DNA from: Candidatus Nanoarchaeia archaeon
Lineage (GTDB): Archaea; Nanobdellota; Nanobdellia; WJKC01
Length of the DNA: 64,000 bases
Direction of reading: 5' to 3'
NCBI GenBank assembly: GCA_041653515.1
Contig: JBAZFG010000001.1
Span: 74,332-138,331, forward strand
Part shown: positions 2,899-34,751 of the stretch, piece by piece
Layout: every line of letters begins with the position of its first letter
Numbering within the stretch: the stretch's first letter is position 1
The notes under the pieces: model-generated
The model's database searches: none
What the model was told of the DNA's origin: nothing
The model's input: the letters and a program-made list of their open reading frames with translations, nothing else
Position numbers and translations under genes: made by a program

Positions 2899-4536
2899 AT
2901 GAAAACAATTAAGGGTAATTTAGTTGATGTTGATAAGAATGAGATTTACCCTGTTATCATTAAGTATGATACTAAGGTGCGACAAATTAATCGCTTGAAT
3001 GAGCCTTGTGATAATTTCATCCTGCCCGGCTTGATTGACGCTCACATTCATATTGAGAGCACAATGCTCACGCCGAGCCGTTTTGCTGAAGTAGTTATCC
3101 CACATGGCACTGTGGCAACAGTCTCTGACCCGCATGAGATAGCTAACGTGGCAGGGGTTAAGGGGGTTAAGTTCATGATTCATGACTCGCCAAGAGAAAT
3201 GAAATTAAATTATACAGCACCCAGTTGTGTGCCTGCCACCCAGTTTGAGACTTCAGGTGCAGAACTTGATTCAAAAAAAGTCAAACAATTATTAAAACTA
3301 AAGCAAGTAGTCGCGCTCGGTGAAGTAATGAATTATCCTGGGGTGATTAATCGTGACCCTGAATTAATGCGCAAGATAAGATTTGCTCGTTTAGCTGGTA
3401 AAAGGGTTGATGGTCACGCGCCAATGCTAACTGGCTTAAACCTTGATAAGTATATTAGTGCTGGCATAACAACCGAGCATGAGTCAACCAGTTATAAGGA
3501 AGGGCTTGAGAAATTAAGGAAAGGTATGAAATTAATGATAAGACAGGGGTTCTCTGAGCATAACATGCCTGACTTAATTCAGTTAGCGCGCCAATACCCT
3601 GATGATTGTTTTATTGTCAGTGATGACCGACACGCGCCTGATTTAGTGAGAGGTCATATTGATGAATTATTACGGCAAGCAGTGGCTTTGGGTCTTGACC
3701 CATTAATAGCTGTTAAGTGCTGCACTAAGAACCCGTCAATTCATTACGGGTTGAATACTGGTTTAATAAGGGTTGGCTTATCAGCTGATTTCGTGGTGGT
3801 TAATGACTTATGCCACTTCTATGTTGAGCAAGTAATAATTAATGGCCAATTAGTGGCTGAAAAAGGTGAATGCTTGGTTAAGTTTAAACAACATAATTTT
3901 CCATTAAGAATTAATTATTACCCATTAAGGAGGGATGATTTTGTTATTAAAGCTGATAGTGATTTTGTTAACGCCCGCGTAATAGGTATAATTAGGCGTC
4001 AGATAATAACTAAGGATTTAACAATGCGATTAAAGGTTAAGAATGGTTTGTTAATGCCTGATGAAAGTAAGGGTGTTAGTTATCTGGCTGTTGTTAATCG
4101 TTATAAAAAAACTAGTCCTGCCATGGCTTTAGTTAAGGGCTTATGGGTTGACGGTGCTATTGCGAGCAGTGTTAGCCATGATAGTCATAATATTATTGTT
4201 ACAGGCAATGACCCTGATGACATGCTTAAAGCAGTTAGGTTAGTGATGCGTCACGGCGGCTTAGCTTTTGCCAGCGGCAAGAAATCCTTTGTTGTCCCGC
4301 TTGAAGTAGCTGGGTTAATGACTAATAAACCATTAAATAAATTACTTGATGAATTATCCACTATTAAGAAAATGGTGCGGTCAGCTGATTGCGCGCTTGC
4401 CTCACCGTTCATGCAATTAAGTTTCCTCGCGTTACTAGTTATTCCTGAATTAAAACTAAGTGATAAAGGCTTGTTTGATGCTAAACGTTTTTGTTTAATT
4501 AAGCCCGAACAACGATTTAAAGAAATTAATGATTGA
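2899..4536 (+). CDS. ade: adenine deaminase (amidohydrolase superfamily)
   Basis: LIDAHIHIES…PHGTVATVSDPHEIANV metal-binding motifs typical of adenine deaminase, with a ~545 aa length. Confidence 0.85.
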   Translation: MKTIKGNLVDVDKNEIYPVIIKYDTKVRQINRLNEPCDNFILPGLIDAHIHIESTMLTPSRFAEVVIPHGTVATVSDPHEIANVAGVKGVKFMIHDSPREMKLNYTAPSCVPATQFETSGAELDSKKVKQLLKLKQVVALGEVMNYPGVINRDPELMRKIRFARLAGKRVDGHAPMLTGLNLDKYISAGITTEHESTSYKEGLEKLRKGMKLMIRQGFSEHNMPDLIQLARQYPDDCFIVSDDRHAPDLVRGHIDELLRQAVALGLDPLIAVKCCTKNPSIHYGLNTGLIRVGLSADFVVVNDLCHFYVEQVIINGQLVAEKGECLVKFKQHNFPLRINYYPLRRDDFVIKADSDFVNARVIGIIRRQIITKDLTMRLKVKNGLLMPDESKGVSYLAVVNRYKKTSPAMALVKGLWVDGAIASSVSHDSHNIIVTGNDPDDMLKAVRLVMRHGGLAFASGKKSFVVPLEVAGLMTNKPLNKLLDELSTIKKMVRSADCALASPFMQLSFLALLVIPELKLSDKGLFDAKRFCLIKPEQRFKEIND

Positions 4537-6003
4537 GTCAAGAATTGTTGGTTGTGATAATGCTTCCAGTTCAGCGAACTCATCATACTCAGCTGATAGT
4601 GAGTCACTCGCCCCAACCATTGTCGGCGCTCTTTCAGCATTAAGGCTGGACGCTTGGTCAACACCTTTCAGTAAGTAGTAGTAAACATTGCCTGTAACAC
4701 TCATGTTTAATTCCCAGTCACTGGTTGTGATATAAGGGTTAATAAAATCCCTTAATTTTTCAACAGCTAGCGTCATGTTATTATCATCAAGGGTTACTGA
4801 TGAGTAAACCCTATCATTAGTTATAACAAAATTACTGCCCCAATAATAAGGTCGTAATAATAATTCATCATCACTAATGCTTCTAACACCGGTCTCAGGC
4901 GCGAACACTTGAATGTAGGGCTCTGTTATCGTAACTTGATAATTATCTTTATAATAAAAAGTATTCATTATATCCTTGCTTGAATCAAAATCACTTAATA
5001 GTGCTGTGTTAAAATTAAAGTTATCAATAATCACTTCACCCTGCAATGAGTAATCATCGCTTGTTAGAGTCAGGCTGTAACCAGGGAAGTACTCATTGAG
5101 CACTGAATTAACCCAGTCACTGATTTTTTGCGCATCAAGTTCCTCACCATAAGCGCTGGCAACTATTTTTCCTTTAGCGCCGATAATGCCATAAACATTC
5201 AGGTAAGCCTGGTCATTATAAGCTGAGAAATAAACTCTTGTTTTGTCCTTGTAAATACCATAACAATTAGTGTCAATTTCAGGATAATAATAATCCCTCA
5301 TGCTTAAGTCACAATTAAGGCTTGTTGATAATGAAGCTAAATCATAACTGCCAGTTGAGTAACCAGTGAATAAGTACTTGACTTCATCGCTGAAGTAATT
5401 AACGTAATCAACACTGCTAACAACGAATTCTTTAATCATTGAAGTGCTGGTCTTAATAACAATTGAGCAATAATCATTATTAAAATATTTTTCACCATTA
5501 AGTGTTTCATAATAACTTCTTAATTCATCGCAGTCACCGCTTAATTGAATGTAATACTCATCGTTTGTCCCATTAACAACGTAATCAGCGTATTTTTCTT
5601 TTAATGAATAACCAATCATATTCATTTCTCTGTCGTTAAATAAGACACTATAATCATTAGTGCTTGAAGTGTAGAATGAAGCGCTCACTGACTTACCAGT
5701 AATGCTTGACTCACTTTCCTTGAACAAGAAATTAATGTTAATGCTCTGGTAATCGCCATAAGAGTAACAGTAAGAATTAGTCACGTTGCTAAATGCGTAA
5801 GGGCTCATGTTTAATTCTTCAATTAACGGGCCTTTTATTGATTCAATGAAAACCGGTGAAACATTGCACTCACTCTCAACGCCTCTTGAATCAACTGAGA
5901 TTAATGCAGGGCTTGATGCGGTTGATTCAGCTAAGACAACGCTCATTAACATCAAAATAATTAGCAAGACTGCTTTTCTCATAGTTTTAGTAGTAATCAG
6001 CAC
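4495..6003 (-). CDS. secreted Tyr/Ser/Asn-rich protein with N-terminal signal peptide
   Basis: MRKAVLLIILMLMSVVLAESTASS signal peptide, followed by a 502 aa low-complexity extracellular-like sequence. Convergent 42-nt overlap with ade. Confidence 0.5.
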   Translation of the reverse strand: MLITTKTMRKAVLLIILMLMSVVLAESTASSPALISVDSRGVESECNVSPVFIESIKGPLIEELNMSPYAFSNVTNSYCYSYGDYQSININFLFKESESSITGKSVSASFYTSSTNDYSVLFNDREMNMIGYSLKEKYADYVVNGTNDEYYIQLSGDCDELRSYYETLNGEKYFNNDYCSIVIKTSTSMIKEFVVSSVDYVNYFSDEVKYLFTGYSTGSYDLASLSTSLNCDLSMRDYYYPEIDTNCYGIYKDKTRVYFSAYNDQAYLNVYGIIGAKGKIVASAYGEELDAQKISDWVNSVLNEYFPGYSLTLTSDDYSLQGEVIIDNFNFNTALLSDFDSSKDIMNTFYYKDNYQVTITEPYIQVFAPETGVRSISDDELLLRPYYWGSNFVITNDRVYSSVTLDDNNMTLAVEKLRDFINPYITTSDWELNMSVTGNVYYYLLKGVDQASSLNAERAPTMVGASDSLSAEYDEFAELEALSQPTILDSIINFFKSLFGLN

Positions 6004-6074
6004 TGTTATTTAAATTATACATATACTTTTGTTCATAACAAGCTATTTTAATAACTATTGAGTATAATCTCTTT

Positions 6075-6353
6075 ATGTTATCAAACATACCAATTGACTT
6101 GAAGAAAGTCAGTAGTAACAGCATTGATAAGGAAGTCCTGCGCCTTGGCATGATTGCTGAGCTTGACGCTGTCAGCTTATACGAGCAATTAGCTGCTATG
6201 GCTACTAATAATAAAGTAAAGAAAGTGCTTCTTGACATTGCTAAAGAAGAGAAAACTCATATGGGCGAGTTCCAAACACTATTGTTAGGGCTTGATAAAG
6301 AGCAGGAACAAGAGTTAAAGAACGGCGAGAAAGAAGTTAAAAGCCTAACATAA
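6075..6353 (+). CDS. small ferritin-like/rubrerythrin-type diiron-motif protein (EncFtn-like, 92 aa)
   Basis: AELDAVSLYEQ … AKEEKTHMGEF (E…EExxH) ferritin-like iron-ligand pattern. Confidence 0.5.
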   Translation: MLSNIPIDLKKVSSNSIDKEVLRLGMIAELDAVSLYEQLAAMATNNKVKKVLLDIAKEEKTHMGEFQTLLLGLDKEQEQELKNGEKEVKSLT

Positions 6354-6388
6354 GAGTTTTTAAACCACTGTGGATAATCTTTTTAATT

Positions 6389-7069
6389 ATGAAATTAGGT
6401 ATTTTATTCTCTGGCGGTAAGGATTCAACTCTAGCTTTGCTTAAAGCAAGAAAACAACATGAAATTGCTTGTCTTATTAGCGTTGTGTCAAGAAACCCTG
6501 ATAGTTATATGTTCCACGTCCCAAACATTCATTTAACACAGCTCCAATCAGAAGCGTTAAGCATTCCGTTATTAACACAAGAGACAAAGGGTGTTAAGGA
6601 ATTAGAGTTAGCTGACTTAAGAAAAGCATTCATTAAAGCCAAAACGGATTATGGTATTGAGGGAATTGTAACTGGCGCTATCAGGTCAGTTTATCAGGCG
6701 AGCCGCGTCCAGCGCTTATGTGATGAGCTTGGTTTATGGTGTTTTAATCCTTTATGGCTGATTGACCAGTTAGAGCTGCTTAACGAAACATTGCTTAATG
6801 GTTTTAAAACCATTATTTCAGGCGTGGCTGGTTACCCTTTTACTAAGGATTTTCTTGGCCAAATAATTGATGAAGGAATTATTAGTAAATTAAAGTCTTT
6901 TCAAGAAAAATTCCTTATTAACCCCGCTGGTGAAGGCGGTGAGCTTGAGACAACAGTTCTTGACTGCCCATTATTCAGTAAGCAAATAGAAATATTGGAT
7001 AGTGATACTTCATTTGATAATTACGCTGGTGTTTTTAATGTAAATAAAGCAAGGTTGGTGAGTAAATGA
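6389..7069 (+). CDS. dph6: Dph6-like diphthine-ammonia ligase / MJ0570-family PP-loop ATP pyrophosphatase
   Basis: SGGKDS PP-loop, EGGELET motif, ~226 aa; collinear with the MJ0570 family. Confidence 0.75.
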   Translation: MKLGILFSGGKDSTLALLKARKQHEIACLISVVSRNPDSYMFHVPNIHLTQLQSEALSIPLLTQETKGVKELELADLRKAFIKAKTDYGIEGIVTGAIRSVYQASRVQRLCDELGLWCFNPLWLIDQLELLNETLLNGFKTIISGVAGYPFTKDFLGQIIDEGIISKLKSFQEKFLINPAGEGGELETTVLDCPLFSKQIEILDSDTSFDNYAGVFNVNKARLVSK

Positions 7070-7509
7070 TTTTATTAATTAATACTTGCGCTGATAAGTT
7101 AAGCGAGCACGAATTTGTTAAGCCAATCAAAGCATTAGTTCATGATGAGTGTTTCATTAAGCATTACTCTGAATTAACTAATAATGATTTATTGGTTGCT
7201 GATAAAATAATTATTTGCGGCACAGCGCTAATGGATTTTGATTACCTTAAAGGTGATTGGTCATGGATTAAAGCTTTTAATAAACCAGTGTTGGGCATCT
7301 GCGCCGGCTTCCAAGTGATTGCCCTGGAACTAGGCAAGGAACTAGTTGATAAGAAAATGATTGGGGTCTTTGACCATAATTATTTTGTTACCTCAAAACT
7401 AGTTGAGGGTGGCGTTACTGAATTAAGGCAGGGCTTATTCACTGCTTACGCTTTCCATCCTGAAGTCCTTAACCCTGAGCTTATTTCAGGATTCTGCCGG
7501 TCTCAATAA
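7066..7509 (+). CDS. class I glutamine amidotransferase domain protein (short, 147 aa)
   Basis: GICAGFQ nucleophile-elbow Cys and FHPE His-Glu motif. ATGA 4-nt overlap with the upstream PP-loop gene. Confidence 0.6.
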   Translation: MILLINTCADKLSEHEFVKPIKALVHDECFIKHYSELTNNDLLVADKIIICGTALMDFDYLKGDWSWIKAFNKPVLGICAGFQVIALELGKELVDKKMIGVFDHNYFVTSKLVEGGVTELRQGLFTAYAFHPEVLNPELISGFCRSQ

Positions 7510-8086
7510 ACCAGAGAACCAAATCCAGTTCCGCTAAATTACTTCCTAATAACTTTAATTGTTCTTCAATCAGCAAGTAATTATTCTTGTTTAAGACTTT
7601 TGGCTTCTTTATTATTCCTTCCCGTTCAAGCAGGTCAAGTATGTGAAAATCAATTATTGCCACGTTATTAAAACCAATGTTTCTCATGAAGTGGCTTGCT
7701 TCTTTCATACCTAAACCCTTGACGTTCTTAACTAACCACTCGCGTAATTCTGGTTCATTAAGAGAACTTATTCTTTCTTTTAGTTGTTCTATTACTTTTC
7801 TTGCTCCAATAATGAACTCAGCTCTCTTATTTGGGAACCGGTGGCTTAATTCCTTAAGTCTTAATGATAATTCCTCTTGACTTAATTCAAGGAACCCATT
7901 ACCAATTAACTTTTGAATCCGAATGGACCGTTCAGCATTAAAATTAGCTGTTAATAAACAAAAGCATAATTCATTGAATAATTTCTTACTGCTGGCTTTT
8001 TTAAGAACTTGAAACTCGCTTAAACGCTGTTTAAGTAATCCATCTTGTTTAACTCTCACTTTTTGCATTTTTTCAAGCAGGCTCAT
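7481..8086 (-). CDS. ogg: 8-oxoguanine DNA glycosylase/AP lyase, archaeal Ogg2-type (HhH-GPD)
   Basis: ~200 aa; HhH segment LGMKEASHFMRNIG…DFHI and size match archaeal Ogg. Confidence 0.6.
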   Translation of the reverse strand: MSLLEKMQKVRVKQDGLLKQRLSEFQVLKKASSKKLFNELCFCLLTANFNAERSIRIQKLIGNGFLELSQEELSLRLKELSHRFPNKRAEFIIGARKVIEQLKERISSLNEPELREWLVKNVKGLGMKEASHFMRNIGFNNVAIIDFHILDLLEREGIIKKPKVLNKNNYLLIEEQLKLLGSNLAELDLVLWFIETGRILK

Positions 8087-8640
8087 TTCTTAACCTCAAC
8101 TACTTTTTTGTTTGGGAAGCAGGCTTCGTAGAGTAATGTGCCTGTTAATTTGGGAACTTTGATTTTTTTATTAACCCACTTATTGCCTTTGCGGTAACTC
8201 ATGATTCCTTTGATAAACAGATTATAAGCGCCTTCAACGCAACTGTCATACTTCCGTGATTTTAACAGCAGTTCCCCGGCGAATAATAATTCCTTGTCTT
8301 TCAAGTGCTTGTTAATGAAATCATTTAATTGCTTGGCTGCCTGTTCTTGTTTGTTATAATCATTAGTTATGCTCATCGGCACTGGGTCGCCGCGTGGCGT
8401 AATTATCAACTCGGTTTTTTTTGGTTTCACTTTGCTTAACCAAGCCTTAGTCTCACTTTCAGCTTCCTTTGAAGTGAACACTAATGAGTCATATTCCTTT
8501 AATGCTTTCTTAACGTTGGTTAAGTAACGCTTGTATGAACCCTTAAGGTTTTTATTAATCTTGAAAGTCCATTTATTAGTAAGTTCTTCTTTGAGCAGGT
8601 CACCGCTGTAACCAGGGTGAATCAGGATTAATAGTTTCAT
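8083..8640 (-). CDS. hypothetical protein (185 aa)
   Basis: ORF overlapping ogg by 4 nt. No family recognised. Confidence 0.4.
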   Translation of the reverse strand: MKLLILIHPGYSGDLLKEELTNKWTFKINKNLKGSYKRYLTNVKKALKEYDSLVFTSKEAESETKAWLSKVKPKKTELIITPRGDPVPMSITNDYNKQEQAAKQLNDFINKHLKDKELLFAGELLLKSRKYDSCVEGAYNLFIKGIMSYRKGNKWVNKKIKVPKLTGTLLYEACFPNKKVVEVKK

Positions 8641-8675
8641 AAACTAAAATTAAAAAAATAGGAGTTAAAATAGTT

Positions 8676-9056
8676 TTATGCTTGCCATAAGCCATGAATG
8701 TTGCATAATTCTCGTGCAGTAACTTTGGTTGCTTTAATGCAGAACGTTGCTTCAGGTTTATCGCCTGGTTTTAAATGCTTGCGGTAAACAATGTTGTCAG
8801 CGATTAATTCAATCCACTCAATGTAATGTTTCTCTTCCATTGGGTGCATTACTGAGCCAACCTTAATCTTGTAGCCATCAATGGTTTGCTCAATCACTGG
8901 CACATGCTTTTCAGCCCCAACATCTTTTATTTTCTCTTGTTTTAGTTCCATTGGTTGGCCGCAACAAACCAGTTCGCCAACACCTTTATGAATTACTTCA
9001 ACAATATTCCCGCAGACATTGCACTTATAGACTTGTTTAATTTCAGTCATAATCAA
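8676..9056 (-). CDS. dfx: desulfoferrodoxin (superoxide reductase, 2Fe-SOR)
   Basis: N-terminal CxxC…CC desulforedoxin-like site plus EKHVP / [17 protein letters not shown] centre; ~125 aa. Confidence 0.85.
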
Positions 9057-13560: not shown

Positions 13561-13629
13561 TCTTTAGTTTACTCAGATTTTTTGATTAATAAAAGTTGTT
13601 ATAAACAACTATTTCTTATTGTTAATTTA

Positions 13630-15618
13630 ATGATTAATACTATTATTAAGCGTGACGGCACACCAATGCCTTTTGATTCATTAAGGATTACTAACGCAAT
13701 CATTAAAGCCATGAATAGTGTTGGTCGCGTTAATGACTCGCTCGCGCTTAAAGTAACCCGCGACGTTATTAATAAATTAAAAAATAAGTCTAATGTTGAT
13801 GAAGTGCTTGACGTGATTGAGTTAGTGCTTAAAATTAATGATTCCATATCAGCTCAATCATTAAGTCTTTACCGAGCGCGCCGTTCACTGGCTCGTGAAT
13901 TCGCAAAATCAGCAGGCATTAAGGATGACTTAAAGTTAAGCCTTAATTCACTCAAAGTTATTGCTAGCCGTTATTTATTAAGAGATAAGACTGGCAGTAT
14001 AATTGAGTCAACGAGCGAGATGTTCCGCCGGGTCGCCAGGTCAGTCGCTGTTGCTGAAAAACAATATGGCGGTGATGCCCGCGCGTTGGAAGAAGAGTTT
14101 TATAATTTAATGATTAAACTTGAGTTCTTGCCTAATAGCCCAACTATCATGAATGCTGGCACGTCAATTAACCAATTGAGCGCTTGTTATGTCCTGCCAG
14201 TTAATGACTCGCTTGACAGTATTTTCTCAACTTTAAAGGATGCAGTCCTTATTCATCATAGTGGTGGTGGGGTTGGTTTTAATTTCTCTCATCTAAGACC
14301 AAATGGTGATGCTGTTAGCAGTACTAGCGGAGTTGCTTCAGGCCCAGTTAGTTTTATTAGAATTTATGATATGGCGACTAGCATTATTAAGCAAGGTGGC
14401 CGCCGTAGGGGCGCTAATATGGCTGTGCTTAACCATAATCACCCTGATATTATAGAATTCATTAATGCTAAGAAGAATGGTGGGTTCATTAATTTTAATT
14501 TCTCTGTGAGCGTGACTGACTCTTTTATTCGTAAAGTGATTAAAGGGGGTGATTACTGGCTTGTTAATCCAAAGGATAATAGTCATGTTAAGAAAGTTAG
14601 TGCGCAGAAAGTGTTTAATCAATTATGCGCCAACGCTTGGACTAATGGGGAGCCAGGTTTATTATTCATTGATGAGATTAATCATCATCACCCATTAAAA
14701 GAATTGGTTGATTGCACTAACCCTTGCGGTGAACAACCATTATTACCTTATGAGTCATGCAATCTTGGCAGTATTAATTTATCAAAAATGATTGTTAACA
14801 ATGATGTTGATTGGGCGCGGCTTAATCGCGTGACTCGTCTGGGTGTTAGGTTCCTTGATGATGTGTTAACAATTAATGAATTCCCTGTTAAGCTTGTGAA
14901 AGATTTAACAATGGCTAACCGCAAGATTGGTCTTGGGGTAATGGGTTTTGCTGATTTATTAATCAAGTTAGGCATACCTTATGATTCTAAGGAATCGCTT
15001 AAGTTAGCAGGTCAGTTAATGAAATTCATTAATGATAAAGCTCATGATGAGTCAATGCGTCTTGGGTTAAAGCGCGGCTCGTTTACTAATTTTAAGAAAA
15101 GCAGGTTATCCCGCAAGTATAAAGCTATGCGCAATGCTACCCTGACTACTATTGCCCCTACTGGTAGTATTAGTTTGATGGCTGATTGCAGTTCAAGCAT
15201 TGAACCATTGTTTGCAGTAGCGTTTTATCATTCAGTGCTTGATGGTGATAAGTTATTAAATGTTAATCATTACTTTGAGAATGAATTAGTTAAGCAGGGC
15301 TTGTACTCTAATAAATTAATCAATAATGTTGTTAATAATAAGATTGAATTACCAGCTCATATTAAGCGTGTTTTTAGGACTGCTTTAGATATTAAGCCTG
15401 AGTGGCACGTTCGGTTGCAAGCCATGTTCCAGAAATATGTTGATAACGCTGTGTCAAAAACAGTTAACTTACCTCATGAAGCAACAATTAATGATGTGAT
15501 GAAAGTATTCCTTCTTGCTTACAAGCTTAATTGTAAAGGCATAACTGTTTATCGGTATGGTAGTCGTGATAATCAAGTACTAACTATTGGTTCCTGCCCG
15601 ACTGGTTCTTGTGATTAA
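13630..15618 (+). CDS. nrdJ: adenosylcobalamin-dependent ribonucleotide reductase, class II (NrdJ) with N-terminal ATP-cone
   Basis: ATP-cone IIKRDGTPMPFD…; active-site CGEQPLLPYESCNLGSINL; C-terminal CPTGSCD. The ORF track starts at 13582, but the in-frame ATG at 13630 (MINTIIKRDG) gives the typical ATP-cone N-terminus. Confidence 0.85.
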   Translation: MINTIIKRDGTPMPFDSLRITNAIIKAMNSVGRVNDSLALKVTRDVINKLKNKSNVDEVLDVIELVLKINDSISAQSLSLYRARRSLAREFAKSAGIKDDLKLSLNSLKVIASRYLLRDKTGSIIESTSEMFRRVARSVAVAEKQYGGDARALEEEFYNLMIKLEFLPNSPTIMNAGTSINQLSACYVLPVNDSLDSIFSTLKDAVLIHHSGGGVGFNFSHLRPNGDAVSSTSGVASGPVSFIRIYDMATSIIKQGGRRRGANMAVLNHNHPDIIEFINAKKNGGFINFNFSVSVTDSFIRKVIKGGDYWLVNPKDNSHVKKVSAQKVFNQLCANAWTNGEPGLLFIDEINHHHPLKELVDCTNPCGEQPLLPYESCNLGSINLSKMIVNNDVDWARLNRVTRLGVRFLDDVLTINEFPVKLVKDLTMANRKIGLGVMGFADLLIKLGIPYDSKESLKLAGQLMKFINDKAHDESMRLGLKRGSFTNFKKSRLSRKYKAMRNATLTTIAPTGSISLMADCSSSIEPLFAVAFYHSVLDGDKLLNVNHYFENELVKQGLYSNKLINNVVNNKIELPAHIKRVFRTALDIKPEWHVRLQAMFQKYVDNAVSKTVNLPHEATINDVMKVFLLAYKLNCKGITVYRYGSRDNQVLTIGSCPTGSCD

Positions 15619-24585: not shown

Positions 24586-25086
24586 TTAATGGTTATTAAT
24601 AGATGGAACTGTTCCGTCATCAACTATTATTGAACTAATGTAATCATTTATTACTTTATAGTATAATTCGAGTTTTTTCTGTTTTTCAATACAATCATCG
24701 CATAACTTATTAGTGCAGGCGTCAATTATTGGCTGATAGGAATCTACAATCTTATCATATAATCTTTTGTAATTAACTAAGAATTCATTCTTGTTCTTTA
24801 TGTGCTCATTAGCTTTCCCACCATTATTAATATCTAAATGGTCTTTTATTATTTTATAAAGCACTTCATCAACGTTGGATAACTCATTAAATTCATAACA
24901 TAATTCATTTAGTGTTGTTAAGCAAATATCAAGCGTGTCAAACCTATCAAAACCTTTTATAGACTGACATTGCTTAACCCTTTTATAAGATTCTTTGTAA
25001 TTAATTATAAAATTCGCTATTGATAACCTTGCCTCGCCTTTCTTAAGCTCTATTCTGCCAAAAGGATTTTTATTCCTTGGTTTCAT
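24586..25086 (-). CDS. hypothetical Cys-containing protein (166 aa)
   Basis: ORF only. Confidence 0.35.
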   Translation of the reverse strand: MKPRNKNPFGRIELKKGEARLSIANFIINYKESYKRVKQCQSIKGFDRFDTLDICLTTLNELCYEFNELSNVDEVLYKIIKDHLDINNGGKANEHIKNKNEFLVNYKRLYDKIVDSYQPIIDACTNKLCDDCIEKQKKLELYYKVINDYISSIIVDDGTVPSINNH

Positions 25087-25158
25087 TAAGAGATTTTATT
25101 ATTATAACATTATAAAGATCATTGTAATTCAGTTCTCATTTTATCCCTGAACGCGCGA

Positions 25159-25340
25159 ATCATTAATGGGTGTATTAGTGGGTTCTTATCATACTCGACC
25201 GCAGGGAGAAGTATCCCCCTTCAGTCTTGAGAAACCCTGATTCCCCCTCTACGTTTATTTTGTCTTAATGGCGTTACTGATTAATTCCTTGAATTTTCTT
25301 ATCATTAGTGGGTGGATTAATGGGTTCTTGTCGTAATTGA
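25159..25340 (+). repeat. ~40-bp imperfect direct repeat (25159-25198 / 25301-25340, ~85% identity) flanking a GC-rich core (25199-25254) that contains ctgattccccctc
   Basis: The copy inside the gene encodes …YDKNPLIHPLMI of the radical-SAM/ArcS protein. The distal copy encodes the same peptide followed by an alternative tail, RAFRDKMRTELQ*. Confidence 0.65.
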
Positions 25341-26514
25341 TTTTATTCATTAATTGCTCGTCGCATAAATCTACTAATTTTATCCCCAGTTCCTTGCACG
25401 CGTTCTTCAAGCACTGACCTGACTCACTCTTTGGTTTATAATAAGAGAATACTTGCTCGTACTTATGAGCTGTTAAGTAATCCTTGACCCGTTGAGTGTT
25501 AATCCTAACATACTCTTTCATTACTTCTGGCGTCTCGTTCCGCTCATCCCAGTCGTAAGCGTTGAATGGGTACTTGTCAGCGAACTCAATTGGGATAACC
25601 CCTGGGTTGCTGATAACAATAATATGAGTATTCTTATACCAATCAAAACCAGTAATAGCGCGCCTGATTGAAACATGCGTCCGACTATTATAATAAGGCT
25701 TCTTCTTACTGCAAGGCAAGAACAAAGCAATAGTTTTGTTCAACGGCTTATTATACAAACGAACCAAGTAATCCTGCCAAACGTTAAAGTGAGGGTGAGT
25801 CACGAACTCAACCCCAACGCCATTTAAATCAGCCTTCTTCTCTAACGGGAATTTAGGCACGAACGCATAATTATTCGGCTCTAACTGAACGCTCTCATAC
25901 TTTTTTGTTCGCTTAAAAAACTCTTGCTCACTAATAGGCTTCCACTCACCTGCCACCCATAAATCAAACAAGCCTGACCTGGCGTGAGGAAAAGTATTAA
26001 TCAACACTATTTCATTACTATACTCGCGCGCTAAGGCAACGCTTTTATCCAATAACCCATCATAATCAAACGGGTGATTAATCAATAAGTATGACTTAAC
26101 TTTGAAGCCATGAGCGTGAACTCGCTCACAAGCCCTCTTATAAGCCTCAACCGTGATGCCCTTGTTTAATTTCTTCAATACTTCATTATCACCAGCCTCA
26201 AGCCCAATCGCCACTACTAATTTGACACCTTTGAACAAAGAGAGTTTCTCGTCAGTCACGTACTCTGGTCTTGACTCAATATACAAGACTCGACCCTGCA
26301 TTACTTTAGCCACATGAGTCTGGAATTTAATTGGGAATTGACAGTCATCCAATAATGAGCCACTGCAGAATAATTTAACATCACCCTCACCACTCTCCCT
26401 ATCAAACCTGTCAATTAACTCATTAGCACTAATATTAACATCATCCTTACCCCAACCACAAAACAAACACTTACCCCAAGAGCACTTGCCGGCGTTTAAC
26501 ACAATCTCTTTCAT
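25255..26514 (-). CDS. radical-SAM domain protein fused to an ArcS-type catalytic domain (PC-X3-KPY-X2-S-X2-H); putative archaeosine (G+) synthesis enzyme
   Basis: N-terminal Cys cluster CSWGKCLFC (Cx4Cx2C) and C-terminal LPCSKKKPYYNSRTH matching the ArcS signature. Divergent from arcTGT. Start placed at Met 26514 (MKEIVLNAGKC) to avoid overlap with tgtA. Confidence 0.6.
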   Translation of the reverse strand: MKEIVLNAGKCSWGKCLFCGWGKDDVNISANELIDRFDRESGEGDVKLFCSGSLLDDCQFPIKFQTHVAKVMQGRVLYIESRPEYVTDEKLSLFKGVKLVVAIGLEAGDNEVLKKLNKGITVEAYKRACERVHAHGFKVKSYLLINHPFDYDGLLDKSVALAREYSNEIVLINTFPHARSGLFDLWVAGEWKPISEQEFFKRTKKYESVQLEPNNYAFVPKFPLEKKADLNGVGVEFVTHPHFNVWQDYLVRLYNKPLNKTIALFLPCSKKKPYYNSRTHVSIRRAITGFDWYKNTHIIVISNPGVIPIEFADKYPFNAYDWDERNETPEVMKEYVRINTQRVKDYLTAHKYEQVFSYYKPKSESGQCLKNACKELGIKLVDLCDEQLMNKINYDKNPLIHPLMIRKFKELISNAIKTK

Positions 26515-26566
26515 AAAAAAATGGAATCCGTAACACTTTTTAAATACCTTGCGTATCACTTTGTTC

Positions 26567-28216
26567 ATGTCATTTGAAATCAAGGACCACGACGGCCTCG
26601 GCCGATTAGGCGTACTGACTGTTAACAATAAGTCAATCACTACACCTAACATTGCGGTAGTCATTAACCCTAATGACTTAACCATCCCCCCTGAAGAAAT
26701 GATGCGTGACTTCGGGGTTGATTTAATTATCACTAACGCCTACATTATTAAAAACTCAAAAAAAGCCAAGGACATTGAAGCTAAAGGATTGCACGAATAC
26801 CTTAATTTCCCCGGCATTATTTACACTGACTCAGGCACTTACCAGATGTTTAGCAAGGGCGGTGCTGCCATCACTAACGAGGAAACACTCGCTTACCAAA
26901 CTAAAATTGGGAGTGATATCCACACGCCACTTGATTTATTCACACTGCCAGATGATGACAGGGCAACCGCAGTCAGCAAACTTACTGAAACAATCAAGCG
27001 GATTAAAGCCATAAGAACAACTAATTTCTCAGCCCCAATACAAGGCGGCTCGTTCATGGACCTGCGAGCTAAAGCCTGCAAAGAACTAGCCAAGGTTAAA
27101 CCAACTGTTTACCCAATTGGCGGTATCGTACCATTAATGATTAGCTATGATTTTAAACGATTAATTGAAGTAATCCTTGAGTGCAAAAAACACTTACCCT
27201 TAAACACACCTGTTCACGCTTTCGGCGCTGGTCACCCGCTTATCTTTGCCTTACTCGCTTACGCAGGAGTTGACTTATTTGACAGCGCTAGTTACGCGTT
27301 ATACGCCAAGGAAGCTAAGTACATCACTGAGACTGGCACAATGAAAGTGGATGAGTTAGTCTCACTGCCTTGTAATTGCCCTATTTGCGCTAAGCATAAG
27401 CCAAGCGATTTGCGCGACGTTGGCTTACTAGCCCGACATAACTTGCACGCCTTAATGAGAGAAGTAAGGTTAGTTAGACAAGCCATTCAGCAAGACCGAT
27501 TATTTGAATTAGTAATGTCAAGAGCGATGAGCCACCCAAACGTTTACTTTGCGTTTAAACGATTGCTTGAGTATAAAGAATTAATCAGCGAGCATAACCC
27601 TATTCGTAAGAGAAACGCTTTATTCTGGACTGGAGCTTTGAGTAGTGAGCGACCTGAGATTAATTATGCTAATAACCAACTTAAATTACTTAAACTAAAA
27701 AAAGCACCCAAACCATTAAAACTAGTTTACCCTTTTGGTCAGAACGTTGGCTGGAGTATTGATTATTCAGTAAAAAATTATGATGACTTAGCAACCCTTC
27801 GATTAATGGCTGATTACCAATTCGGTGCTGGCGCTGGACTAAAATTAATCCCTGACAATGTCACCATTATTAAAAGCCGTAACCAGCGATTACATGAAGT
27901 ATTACTTAAAAATGAATTATTATTCATCGTCCGCGCCCGTGATGGTTACTTTGCACTACATAAAGCTGGCGCGAAACGATTAAAACAATACTTAAAAAAA
28001 GTGGTCGCGCCAGATGAATATAAAGAGTTTTACCAAAAAGGCGGCGACGTGTTCGCCAAACACGTGCTTAAAGCAAACAACATTAAGCCGCGCGAGGAAG
28101 TCGGTGTTTATTGCGGCAAAGAATTAGTCGGGGTCGGCGAGGCAACACTATCAAGCCGTGAGATGATTGTTTTTGATAAAGGCGTGGCTGTTAAGACACG
28201 TGAAGGAATAAAATAA
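26567..28216 (+). CDS. tgtA: archaeosine tRNA-guanine transglycosylase (arcTGT) with C-terminal PUA domain
   Basis: MSFEIKDHDGLGRLG N-terminus, Zn site CNCPICAKH, ~550 aa. Confidence 0.9.
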   Translation: MSFEIKDHDGLGRLGVLTVNNKSITTPNIAVVINPNDLTIPPEEMMRDFGVDLIITNAYIIKNSKKAKDIEAKGLHEYLNFPGIIYTDSGTYQMFSKGGAAITNEETLAYQTKIGSDIHTPLDLFTLPDDDRATAVSKLTETIKRIKAIRTTNFSAPIQGGSFMDLRAKACKELAKVKPTVYPIGGIVPLMISYDFKRLIEVILECKKHLPLNTPVHAFGAGHPLIFALLAYAGVDLFDSASYALYAKEAKYITETGTMKVDELVSLPCNCPICAKHKPSDLRDVGLLARHNLHALMREVRLVRQAIQQDRLFELVMSRAMSHPNVYFAFKRLLEYKELISEHNPIRKRNALFWTGALSSERPEINYANNQLKLLKLKKAPKPLKLVYPFGQNVGWSIDYSVKNYDDLATLRLMADYQFGAGAGLKLIPDNVTIIKSRNQRLHEVLLKNELLFIVRARDGYFALHKAGAKRLKQYLKKVVAPDEYKEFYQKGGDVFAKHVLKANNIKPREEVGVYCGKELVGVGEATLSSREMIVFDKGVAVKTREGIK

Positions 28217-28523: not shown

Positions 28524-28673
28524 TAGGATTAAGTAATCATCATTCTGTTATTAAAGTTTTTTATTAACATTAATGCAAAAGTATTAAAAAAACAATCCTT
28601 GTCTTAAAGAATCAAAAGCGACTGTAGTCCAAGCTTTTCTTAGCAAGAAAACCTTGACCAAAAGAACTAAAAG

Positions 28674-28681
28674 TTATATTA
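28674..28681 (+). promoter_or_regulatory. TATA-box-like element (ttatatta) with upstream A-rich BRE-like sequence ~20 nt before tRNA-Gly
   Basis: aaaagttatatta lies ~18-25 nt upstream of the mature tRNA 5' end. Confidence 0.35.
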
Positions 28682-28698
28682 CAGTCAATGTAAGAAAA

Positions 28699-28769
28699 GC
28701 GTTCGTAGTCTAGTGGTAGGATCTCAGCCTTCCAAGCTGATGACCTGGGTTCGAATCCCAGCGAGCGCA
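28699..28769 (+). tRNA. tRNA-Gly (anticodon UCC)
   Basis: Cloverleaf read by eye: acceptor GCGTTCG/CGAGCGC, anticodon loop CUUCCAA, T-arm GGGTTCGAATCCC; no encoded CCA. Confidence 0.85.
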
Positions 28770-28850
28770 TCAAAGATGCGAACTGATGGGCTCTGTGCGA
28801 GACTGAGCTGAAAGCGAAGAGCAAAGCGCACAGCAATCCCAGCAGTCGCA
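28754..28850 (+). repeat. partial duplication of the tRNA-Gly 3' end (aatcccagcgagcgca / aatcccagcagtcgca) flanking a 65-bp GC-rich hairpin insert
   Basis: 13-14 of 16 nt identical. The insert (28770-28834) has a CTGTGCG…CGCACAG inverted repeat and is unusually GC-rich for this genome. Confidence 0.45.
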
Positions 28851-28912
28851 GACACTTGCTCATTCTTGTTTGATAGCAATCTTTAATAAGTATTAGTTGT
28901 TAGTATTCTTTT

Positions 28913-33893: not shown

Positions 33894-34586
33894 ATGGATT
33901 TAATTGAATTATTGAAGGATAAGAAGGCTATCTTGTTTGATTGGGATGGAGTCTTGTTTAATTCATTGCCTGCTCATTTGAAGCACGCTAAGCATTGCTG
34001 TGAGGCGCGCGGCATTATTAATCACCCTGTTTTTGAGTCAATGAAGGCTTATCGTGAGTTCCTGAGTGATTGCCCGGGCCATTTCTCTGAGATTTATAAA
34101 AAACTAGGCATTGATTACATGCTTAATCATGAGCAAATAACTAATGATTTCATTAAGTTCATGAATGATTCTTCTCTTGAATTATTTGACGGCGCTTATG
34201 AATTGCTTTGTGATTTAAAAGAGCATTACTTGGTTGGCTTGGTTACTTCATCATTCCGCGAGAGTGTTATCCCGCGTTTGCCTTATGGTTTTAATTTTCA
34301 TAGTGAAGTTTTTGCTGGCGAGGCAGCGTCAAAACCAGCGCCTAACGGCATCATTAAGTGCTTGGCTGAGCTTGACGTTAAACCTGAGGAAGCGGTTTAC
34401 GTTGGTGACATGATTAGTGATGCCCAAGCAGCTAGTGCTGCAGGGGTTAGTTTCATTGGTGTGACGTATGGTTATAATAATCATCAAGCACTGGCAGCCC
34501 AACCGCACTTATTAATTGTTGACAGTGTCGAAACGCTTAAAAAGACCCTGCTTACTTATAGTAGATTGTCAGCGACCATAACTTAA
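33894..34586 (+). CDS. HAD-superfamily hydrolase
   Basis: Motif I LFDWDGVLFNS and motif IV GDMISD. The 3' end overlaps the 5S rRNA. Confidence 0.75.
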   Translation: MDLIELLKDKKAILFDWDGVLFNSLPAHLKHAKHCCEARGIINHPVFESMKAYREFLSDCPGHFSEIYKKLGIDYMLNHEQITNDFIKFMNDSSLELFDGAYELLCDLKEHYLVGLVTSSFRESVIPRLPYGFNFHSEVFAGEAASKPAPNGIIKCLAELDVKPEEAVYVGDMISDAQAASAAGVSFIGVTYGYNNHQALAAQPHLLIVDSVETLKKTLLTYSRLSATIT

Positions 34587-34682
34587 GGGGTACCACCCGT
34601 TCTCATCCCGAACACGGAAGTTAAGCCTTTAAGTGTTATAACCTGTACTGTGTAATACATGGGAACGTTATAAGTTGCCGAC
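34568..34682 (+). rRNA. 5S ribosomal RNA (stand-alone)
   Basis: CCACCCGTTCTCATCCCGAACACGGAAGTTAAGC matches the universal 5S helix II/III-loop C region. Terminal helix GTCAGCGAC/GTTGCCGAC; ~115 nt. Confidence 0.8.
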
Positions 34683-34751
34683 ATCTATTTTTTTTTAAAT
34701 TACACTAGTGCTAACTAAGAACTTTTATAAAATAGTACATTTTACTATAGA

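Follow-up and report, generated by a model that had tools for sequence, protein, structure and literature searches.

We describe a gene on the reverse strand of a 64,000-nucleotide stretch of DNA from a Candidatus Nanoarchaeia archaeon (contig JBAZFG010000001.1, positions 74,332-138,331, forward strand; this whole stretch is referred to as the window, and all coordinates below are window coordinates unless a contig is named). The gene, at 25255-26514, encodes a 419-residue protein in which a radical S-adenosylmethionine (SAM) core of the RaSEA type is followed by the catalytic C1 domain of ArcS, and its product is quite probably a minimal, single-polypeptide, bifunctional archaeosine synthase. 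A single-chain archaeosine synthase is its most likely function because of the published biochemistry of ArcTGT, ArcS and RaSEA (PMC11298593); that the protein carries out both chemical steps, with lysine as donor and on a tRNA substrate, we infer from homology and gene context. The gene and its parts are as follows.

25255-26514, reverse strand: fusion gene, RaSEA-type core followed by ArcS C1, 419 residues, with the stop codon at 25255-25257
25900-26514, reverse strand: N-terminal radical-SAM core, RaSEA-like, residues 1-205, from the match to TIGR01210
26458-26484, reverse strand: putative [4Fe-4S]/SAM cluster motif C11-x4-C16-x2-C19, read from the sequence
25822-25899, reverse strand: inter-domain linker, residues 206-231, between the end of the RaSEA profile match (residue 193) and the start of the confident C1 alignment (residue ~232)
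25360-25821, reverse strand: predicted ArcS C1 catalytic domain (Pfam DUF5591), residues 232-385, from PF17884 and hhalign
25675-25716, reverse strand: ArcS signature P267-C268-x3-K272-P273-Y274-x2-S277-x2-H280, read from the sequence
25258-25359, reverse strand: C-terminal helical tail, residues 386-419, basic (isoelectric point about 9.9), with helices at 386-391 and 402-417 in the AlphaFold2 model

The N-terminal half is matched by Pfam Radical_SAM over residues 11-148 (E 1.2e-11, 45.5 bits against a gathering score of 29.5). Its best radical-SAM match in NCBIfam is RaSEA (TIGR01210, E 1.4e-27, residues 4-193 on profile positions 18-229 of 313), and the next radical-SAM family, at E 2.8e-08, is about 19 orders of magnitude worse. 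The nearest stand-alone relatives of this half (P0160, P0171, P0177, P0189 and P0208) score 301-358 bits on TIGR01210, above its equivalog cutoff of 212, which indicates that the domain is specifically RaSEA-like. The cysteine triad reads C11-SWGK-C16-LF-C19 and is common to the fusion and the stand-alone RaSEA proteins; the latter have a spacing of Cx4-9Cx2C at the same position, with exactly Cx4Cx2C in P0160. When fusions were aligned with these five stand-alone proteins (alignment A2), SGS51-53, E80/R82/P83, GLE104-106, K118 and N173 were found to be invariant as well. The RaSEA-like part stops near residue 205, and the position of the cysteine-rich module of RaSEA is taken in the fusion by DUF5591.

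The C-terminal half carries the motif LPCSKKKPYYNSRTH (residues 266-280), which is an exact fit to PC-X3-KPY-X2-S-X2-H, the ArcS motif definition as quoted in PMC10516641 and PMC5699537. Pfam DUF5591 (PF17884) covers residues 246-384 (E 1.8e-17; 64 bits, cutoff 26), and the ArcS alpha-subunit models NF053620 and NF040592 rank first for this half (E 8e-17 and 4e-15, residues 218-362). In an hhalign comparison with a canonical 574-residue ArcS-type protein (P0267, at 425.8 bits on NF040592 slightly below the cutoff of 440), residues ~232-359 of the fusion aligned to residues 260-384 with a probability of 99.3%; the motif is in register, and so is a downstream block, H-x-V-I-S/T-x-P-G-V-P-x-E ... 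YD. No TGT, TGT_C2 or PUA domain was found in the fusion protein by the Pfam scan.

The first-pass annotation of this DNA had read 25255-26514 as a single open reading frame (ORF) that joins a radical-SAM-like cysteine triad of Cx4Cx2C spacing to the ArcS signature in one polypeptide, without PUA and TGT-like domains. Each part of this description holds: the gene is one intact frame of 419 codons plus stop, Radical_SAM and DUF5591 lie in the same chain and both exceed their Pfam thresholds, the triad is located at 26458-26484 and is invariant in 40 of 40 family members, the signature is matched perfectly from P267 to H280 (25675-25716), and the tRNA-binding and TGT-like domains are indeed missing. 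The checks that it had proposed point the same way, since in the profile searches RaSEA ranks first in NCBIfam, in the alignments with RaSEA and ArcS both halves align with their key residues, the predicted structure folds confidently in both domains, and the same architecture recurs across many archaeal phyla and independent assemblies, as described below.

AlphaFold2, supplied with the family alignment, returned a single compact two-domain model with a mean predicted local distance difference test score (pLDDT) of 94.7 and a predicted template modelling score of 0.89. No segment of the model falls under a pLDDT of 50, and the linker is structured (pLDDT 84-96). The RaSEA-type domain is thus predicted to be physically associated with ArcS C1, the two being joined covalently in one confident fold. 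In Foldseek searches against the PDB, the N-terminal half matched the radical-SAM enzymes archaeal Elp3, Mmp10, MgmA and MiaB, and the C-terminal half matched AF0587 (2q07), in agreement with a PDB sequence search. The latter search (phmmer) also showed that archaeal Elp3 has the same Cx4Cx2C spacing (KCPHGKCIFC). No solved ArcS-RaSEA structure was found in either the structure or the sequence search of the PDB.

A search of 5.8 billion proteins yielded 229 matches, of which 120 were listed; these 120 homologues are 400-455 residues long with 89-100% query coverage, and all but four carry both precomputed Pfam domains (P0067, one of the four, is among the sequences of the family alignment and has the cysteine triad). 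Scanning 1.84 billion cluster representatives exhaustively with HMMER, we obtained 795 matches. In all, over 130 full-length homologues of 410-455 residues retain both sets of motifs. We re-scanned all 267 proteins retrieved with domain hidden Markov models (HMMs), and found the N-then-C architecture of the fusion in 132 (median 428 residues), the radical-SAM domain only in 79 (median 330 residues) and C1 only in 54 (median 242 residues), with one further protein each of the orders C then N and N then N. Conservation was assessed in an alignment of 40 sequences, namely the window protein and 39 homologues that are 40-87% identical to it. Invariant positions include C11, C16, C19, S51-G52-S53, E80, G104-L105-E106, K118 and N173 in the N-terminal half and C268, K272, P273, Y274 and S277 in the C-terminal half, where P267 and H280 are kept in at least 90% of the sequences; C268 is the only invariant cysteine of the family besides the triad. 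Both active sites therefore appear to be under purifying selection.

A scan of one genome per GTDB species recovered 163 loci with relatives of the fusion, and we examined lineages and gene contexts in the best 80 of these. The closest relatives, at 55-64% identity, come from genomes assigned to Candidatus Parvarchaeota or left unclassified within DPANN. DPANN is further represented by Micrarchaeota, Iainarchaeum, Woesearchaeota, Aenigmatarchaeota, Nanoarchaeota, Nanohaloarchaea and Altiarchaeota, and outside DPANN the protein is encoded in Thermoproteota (a Kor1 metagenome-assembled genome (MAG), Desulfurococcales, Thermofilaceae and Thermodiscus), in Methanomethylicota (Culexmicrobium) and in one Asgard MAG. 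The fusion is genuine and widely distributed among archaea with small genomes. Public databases name it in general terms, as "DUF5591 domain-containing protein" or "radical SAM protein", with an occasional "archaeosine synthase".

The mechanical ORF call at this locus is longer than the gene described here (25255-26733, reverse strand, 492 residues, GTG start). We regard 25255-26514 as the correct limits because the ATG at 26514 (MKEIVLNAGKCSWGKCLFCGWGK) is the start position for 39 of 39 aligned homologues and because an extension to the GTG at 26733, which was rejected as a start, would run into arcTGT on the opposite strand. The reading frame is uninterrupted, with no internal stops, and re-inspection of starts and stops, which the first-pass annotation had named as a way in which the ORF could turn out to be two genes, leaves a single gene with a start fixed by homologues and a conserved architecture. 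A displaced second copy of the 3' end just past the stop codon might be taken as a sign that the fusion is an artefact of mis-joined genes, of chimeric assembly or of a decaying pseudogene. The probability of this is virtually nil, given the intact frame, the N-to-C architecture that 132 of the 267 retrieved proteins share across many assemblies and phyla, the invariant catalytic residues and the confident two-domain model; the homologue searches, the alignment, the species scan and the AlphaFold2 model effectively refute it.

The displaced copy is part of a 64-nucleotide direct repeat (25135-25198 and 25277-25340, 72% identity, 142-nucleotide spacing). Translated (25122-25214, reverse strand), it reads ..YDKNPLIHPLMIRAFRDKMRTELQ followed by a stop, and resembles the C-terminus of the closest homologue, P0001; the C-terminal tail now in use (KFKELISNAIKTK) resembles tails of the P0003/P0006 type. 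This looks like a replacement or duplication of the 3' end through recombination that left the ancestral tail behind, and the displaced copy shows that rearrangement has occurred at this locus.

Two metagenomic proteins join the same domains in the opposite order. P0168 consists of a partial DUF5591, TGT_C2, PUA and Radical_SAM (202 bits with the model for RaSEA and 184 bits with that for ArcS), and P0144 of DUF5591 followed by Radical_SAM. A neighbour-joining tree built from radical-SAM domains places all 36 sampled N-to-C fusions within one clade, the other seven members of which are five short sequences that are probably fragments, P0169 and P0142. The nearest tree neighbours of P0144 and P0168 are stand-alone RaSEA proteins, not the N-to-C fusion family. 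Since their radical-SAM parts group in this way, P0144 and P0168 represent independent fusion events, and on this evidence the ArcS and RaSEA subunits have been fused at least twice and probably three times. In P0142 (544 residues), a 316-residue N-terminal region precedes a fusion-type radical-SAM domain.

The fusion gene is separated by a short spacer from a gene for the enzyme that acts before archaeosine synthase, and these two features are as follows.

26567-28216, forward strand: arcTGT (TgtA), tRNA-guanine(15) transglycosylase, with 441 bits on TIGR00432 against a cutoff of 350
26515-26566, no strand: divergent intergenic region of 52 bp with a single central TATA-like element, TATTTAAAAA, at 26537-26546

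The divergent pairing with arcTGT that the first-pass annotation had pointed out is confirmed, as the neighbour is a genuine arcTGT on the opposite strand, with 52 bp between the two ATGs. It has Pfam matches to TGT (224 bits), TGT_C2 (73 bits) and PUA (34 bits), and its ATG at 26567 is preferred to a TTG at 26549, homologues aligning from residue 1-3 of the ATG version. The TATA-like element lies about 26-27 nucleotides from each ATG, and comparable AT-rich spacers of 34-60 bp with TTTAAA-type elements are present in the syntenic loci L001, L002, L012, L016, L032 and L034. We infer that the spacer is a shared bidirectional promoter that gives rise to near-leaderless mRNAs.

Using tblastn with the window arcTGT, we found a match within 6 kb of the fusion in 25 of the best 80 loci (of 163). 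By our own estimate, the chance expectation for a single-copy gene to fall within 12 kb in a genome of ~1 Mb is about 1%. The two genes are directly divergent in seven loci, with 32-208 bp between the matches, and in two Thermoproteota loci (L033 and L039) arcTGT lies immediately downstream on the same strand, with an 11-nucleotide gap between the matches. In L039, the Thermoproteota "Kor1" MAG, the ORFs of the fusion (5983-7329) and of a 554-residue TGT (7307-8971) overlap by 23 nucleotides; a MarC-family membrane protein gene is located upstream there, and the TGT reaches Pfam significance in its catalytic domain only. The linkage is thus kept in a layout unlike that of the divergent pair in DPANN. 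In the nearest relatives the neighbourhood is syntenic with that of the window, in the order PAC2, HAD, arcTGT, fusion, a variable slot, RNase J and GluRS. No conserved partner was seen in the contexts from Altiarchaeota, Methanomethylicota and an unassigned contig (P0030, L094). About 480 bp downstream of arcTGT in the window there is a tRNA-Gly(UCC) gene (28699-28769, forward strand) with A14-G15, a potential archaeosine substrate. With canonical ArcS and RaSEA as tblastn queries, no second ArcS or RaSEA gene was found in the window; beyond the fusion itself, TGT- and PUA-type regions gave weak matches to arcTGT and nothing else.

The viral relatives of the fusion bear on whether it could belong to a DNA-modification (dG+) module of a mobile element, or of a defence or anti-defence system, in the manner of viral ArcS2 with DpdA. 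One IMG/VR viral contig (L085) encodes, at 3162-3758, a 198-residue C1-only protein with the motif LPCAAIKPYNNSPLH that is 38% identical to residues 219-417 of the fusion, including the C-terminal tail, which the two proteins share. An overlapping gene at 3755-4681 encodes a 308-residue protein that, judged by sequence alone, is DpdA/TGT-like (CxCxxC), and the two together resemble an ArcS2-DpdA pair, with an apparent relation to the fusion-type C1 lineage. We nonetheless regard a DNA-modification role as extremely improbable, because viral contigs carry C1-only relatives alone (the viral matches span residues 219-417 only, and none of the seven covers the radical-SAM half), and because the neighbour in the window is of the tRNA type, passing the TgtA equivalog cutoff and possessing C2 and PUA domains, within conserved housekeeping surroundings (GluRS, RNase J, ProRS and PAC2) that are syntenic in related genomes. 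The combination that characterizes ArcS2, C1 alone with a DpdA-type DNA transglycosylase, is not that of the fusion.

As an archaeosine synthase acting on tRNA, the fusion protein would take part in a route of three steps. The divergently encoded ArcTGT would swap tRNA G15 for preQ0, after which the ArcS-C1 domain would add L-lysine to the nitrile of preQ0-15 to give preQ0-Lys. The RaSEA-type domain, holding a [4Fe-4S] cluster by C11, C16 and C19, would then cleave SAM reductively, and the 5'-deoxyadenosyl radical would cut off the lysine moiety, leaving the formamidine of archaeosine (G+15). This scheme follows published findings that ArcTGT puts preQ0 at G15, that ArcS transfers lysine to form preQ0-Lys, and that RaSEA, complexed with ArcS, turns preQ0-Lys into G+ (PMC11298593). 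The covalent fusion would stand in for the non-covalent ArcS-RaSEA complex of Euryarchaeota, and would dispense with the tRNA-binding Nt, C2 and PUA domains of ArcS as well as with the cysteine-rich C-terminal module of RaSEA. The substrates of T. kodakarensis ArcS include the preQ0 nucleoside and 5'-monophosphate, and not the free base (PMC11298593), which means that ArcS catalysis does not depend on tRNA architecture; as published ArcS works on such minimal substrates, the loss of the tRNA-binding domains does not exclude activity of the fusion.

Several observations weigh against this assignment. The fusion scores 96.8 bits on TIGR01210, short of the equivalog cutoff of 212.15, and the ArcS models give 55.4 bits against 440 (NF040592) and 60.8 bits against 600 (NF053620), with the central region alone being matched; there is no NCBIfam model whose cutoff it passes. 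The scores fall below the equivalog cutoffs of these three models in part because domains are missing and the profiles are only partly matched, the four-domain ArcS architecture Nt(TGT-like)-C1-C2-PUA not being present in the fusion. By curated criteria the protein is a full member of neither subunit family, as it lies below the cutoffs and the defining domains are absent. The C-terminal cysteine-rich module (HNCxxC...CxC), which is present in 5 of 5 stand-alone RaSEA proteins examined, is absent from the fusion, and by this measure the N-terminal half is not a complete RaSEA. The module is possibly a Zn site or a second cluster, and the lyase step may differ if it is catalytically needed. The fusion has no recognisable RNA-binding domain left, though G15 is buried in folded tRNA. 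No gene of preQ0 biosynthesis was detected in the surrounding 12 kb or so, Pfam finding no QueC, QueD or QueE among the 20 ORFs at 12.9-21.5 and 28.9-37.0 kb or the three ORFs between the fusion and GluRS. Finally, C1 chemistry is not uniformly lysine-dependent, since viral ArcS2, which is C1-only, yields dG+ in E. coli where RaSEA is absent (PMC10516641), and NH4+, Gln or Asn can serve M. jannaschii ArcS as donors in vitro (PMC11298593).

Part of this would suit a different chemistry, in which C1 uses a non-lysine amine donor or amidates preQ0 directly, the product being a G+ derivative or another 7-deazaguanine, and in which the RaSEA-like domain processes another adduct or installs a further modification. 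HMM scores well under the equivalog cutoffs, the lost cysteine module, the donor use that varies among ArcS proteins and the ability of ArcS2 to work without RaSEA are all consistent with such an enzyme. Against this, the complete ArcS motif is invariant, as are the residues held in common with stand-alone RaSEA, no other radical-SAM family comes within about 19 orders of magnitude of RaSEA, and the joining of the same two partners in what are probably three independent fusions fits best with the known two-step route, so that we hold a different chemistry to be improbable.

A role outside tRNA is less probable still: acting on the free preQ0 nucleoside or nucleotide, or on a non-tRNA RNA, the fusion would serve in salvage or modify some other RNA target. 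Although ArcS has a very high Km for 5'P-preQ0 (433 µM) and the free preQ0 base is no substrate (PMC11298593), the acceptance of the preQ0 nucleoside and 5'-monophosphate by the T. kodakarensis enzyme, whose authors raise non-tRNA substrates (PMC11298593), is in keeping with this idea, as is the lack of PUA, C2 and TGT-like domains in the fusion. The recurrent tight linkage to a tRNA-specific arcTGT with a PUA domain argues for tRNA instead, and we consider a non-tRNA substrate very improbable.

The archaeosine synthase reading can be carried further by proposing that the fusion lacks tRNA-binding domains because it works docked on ArcTGT, from which it would borrow the C2/PUA domains and the remodelled, lambda-form tRNA with position 15 exposed. 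In that case the three activities of base exchange, lysine addition and radical cleavage would be united in one channelled complex. The family would then represent the archaeosine machinery in its ancestral or most reduced form, from which viral C1-only ArcS2 would probably have come. Taken as a whole, we regard this proposal as tentative and rather unlikely.

The window at 13582-15618 (forward strand) and over 12-37 kb is housekeeping DNA of a DPANN-type archaeon with a low GC content of about 36%, closely syntenic with the Parvarchaeota-labelled MAG contigs L001, L002 and L092. Its genes encode a ribonucleotide reductase with an ATP-cone, an MPG glycosylase, GluRS, RNase J, ProRS, PAC2, two HAD hydrolases, and VTT- and HD-domain proteins. 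Of the 23 flanking ORFs that were scanned, about a third could not be placed in any Pfam family. The variable slot between the fusion and RNase J is occupied in the window by a 166-residue ORF (24586-25086, reverse strand) without a Pfam or NCBIfam family, and elsewhere by a 204-residue opposite-strand ORF (L001), by a 141-residue ORF and a PBP-family gene (L002), or by the PBP-family gene alone (L092). The Rfam scan of the window recovered the tRNA-Gly and a 5S rRNA only, and no riboswitch near the pair of fusion and arcTGT. The 5S rRNA (34568-34683, forward strand, 72.8 bits) stands alone, outside any rRNA operon within the window, and overlaps the final 19 bases of a HAD-family ORF call (33894-34586). 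An 83-residue "ORF" at 28612-28863 (reverse strand) is merely the antisense of the tRNA-Gly.

If the protein is active, a minimal archaeosine core would amount to about 420 residues, against more than 900 for ArcS plus RaSEA, and it would follow that ArcS can do without its Nt, C2 and PUA domains and RaSEA without its cysteine-rich tail. The lysine/radical-SAM route, so far known from Euryarchaeota, would reach DPANN, Korarchaeia-like and other Thermoproteota, Methanomethylicota and an Asgard MAG. The fusions provide independent genomic support of the Rosetta-stone kind for the partnership of ArcS and RaSEA, a naturally occurring single chain offers structural studies a compact target, and new names could be given to database entries that now read "DUF5591 domain-containing protein" or "radical SAM protein". 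We found no earlier description of the fusion in the searchable literature, which left out key primary papers, so that a prior mention is possible.

Among known systems, QueF-like and GAT-QueC are the alternative archaeosine-forming enzymes of Crenarchaeota and carry out the same step from preQ0-tRNA to G+-tRNA. They have unrelated folds (a T-fold in QueF-like, QueC plus a GATase in GAT-QueC), and no similarity to them was detected in the fusion. Enzymes of the Elp3 and MnmL (YtqA) branch are the nearest solved structures and next-best families for the N-terminal domain, and archaeal Elp3 has the Cx4Cx2C spacing of the fusion; they match the domain far less well (E 1e-7 to 1e-8, compared with 1e-27 for RaSEA), and the fusion has no GNAT domain but a different partner domain. 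P0168 and P0144 resemble it in the covalent joining of both archaeosine synthase subunits and differ in their reversed domain order and, in the case of P0168, in keeping C2 and PUA. The C1-only ArcS homologues, which comprise viral ArcS2 (Vibrio phage nt-1 and STSV-2) and stand-alone C1 proteins of some archaea (PMC10516641), likewise have a minimal DUF5591 domain without tRNA-binding domains; whereas ArcS2 has no radical-SAM domain, is partnered with DpdA and acts on DNA, the fusion keeps the RaSEA core and is paired with a tRNA-type arcTGT.

The closest counterpart is the ArcS-RaSEA complex, the alpha and beta subunits of archaeosine synthase in the Euryarchaeota T. kodakarensis, M. acetivorans and T. 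acidophilum (Yokogawa et al. 2019, as described in PMC11298593). The fusion is one chain of 419 residues in the order RaSEA then C1, as opposed to two proteins of roughly 575 and 300-350 residues; of the ArcS domains it lacks Nt (TGT-like), C2 and PUA, and of RaSEA the cysteine-rich module. It occurs chiefly in DPANN, Korarchaeia-like and other Thermoproteota, Methanomethylicota and one Asgard MAG, instead of classical Euryarchaeota. The fusing of two subunits already known as a tight complex is a natural and unsurprising event. Both systems have a C1 domain with PCX3KPYX2SX2H and a RaSEA-type core with the cysteine triad, physically coupled and linked to arcTGT, and the same two-step chemistry via preQ0-Lys would therefore be expected of the fusion.

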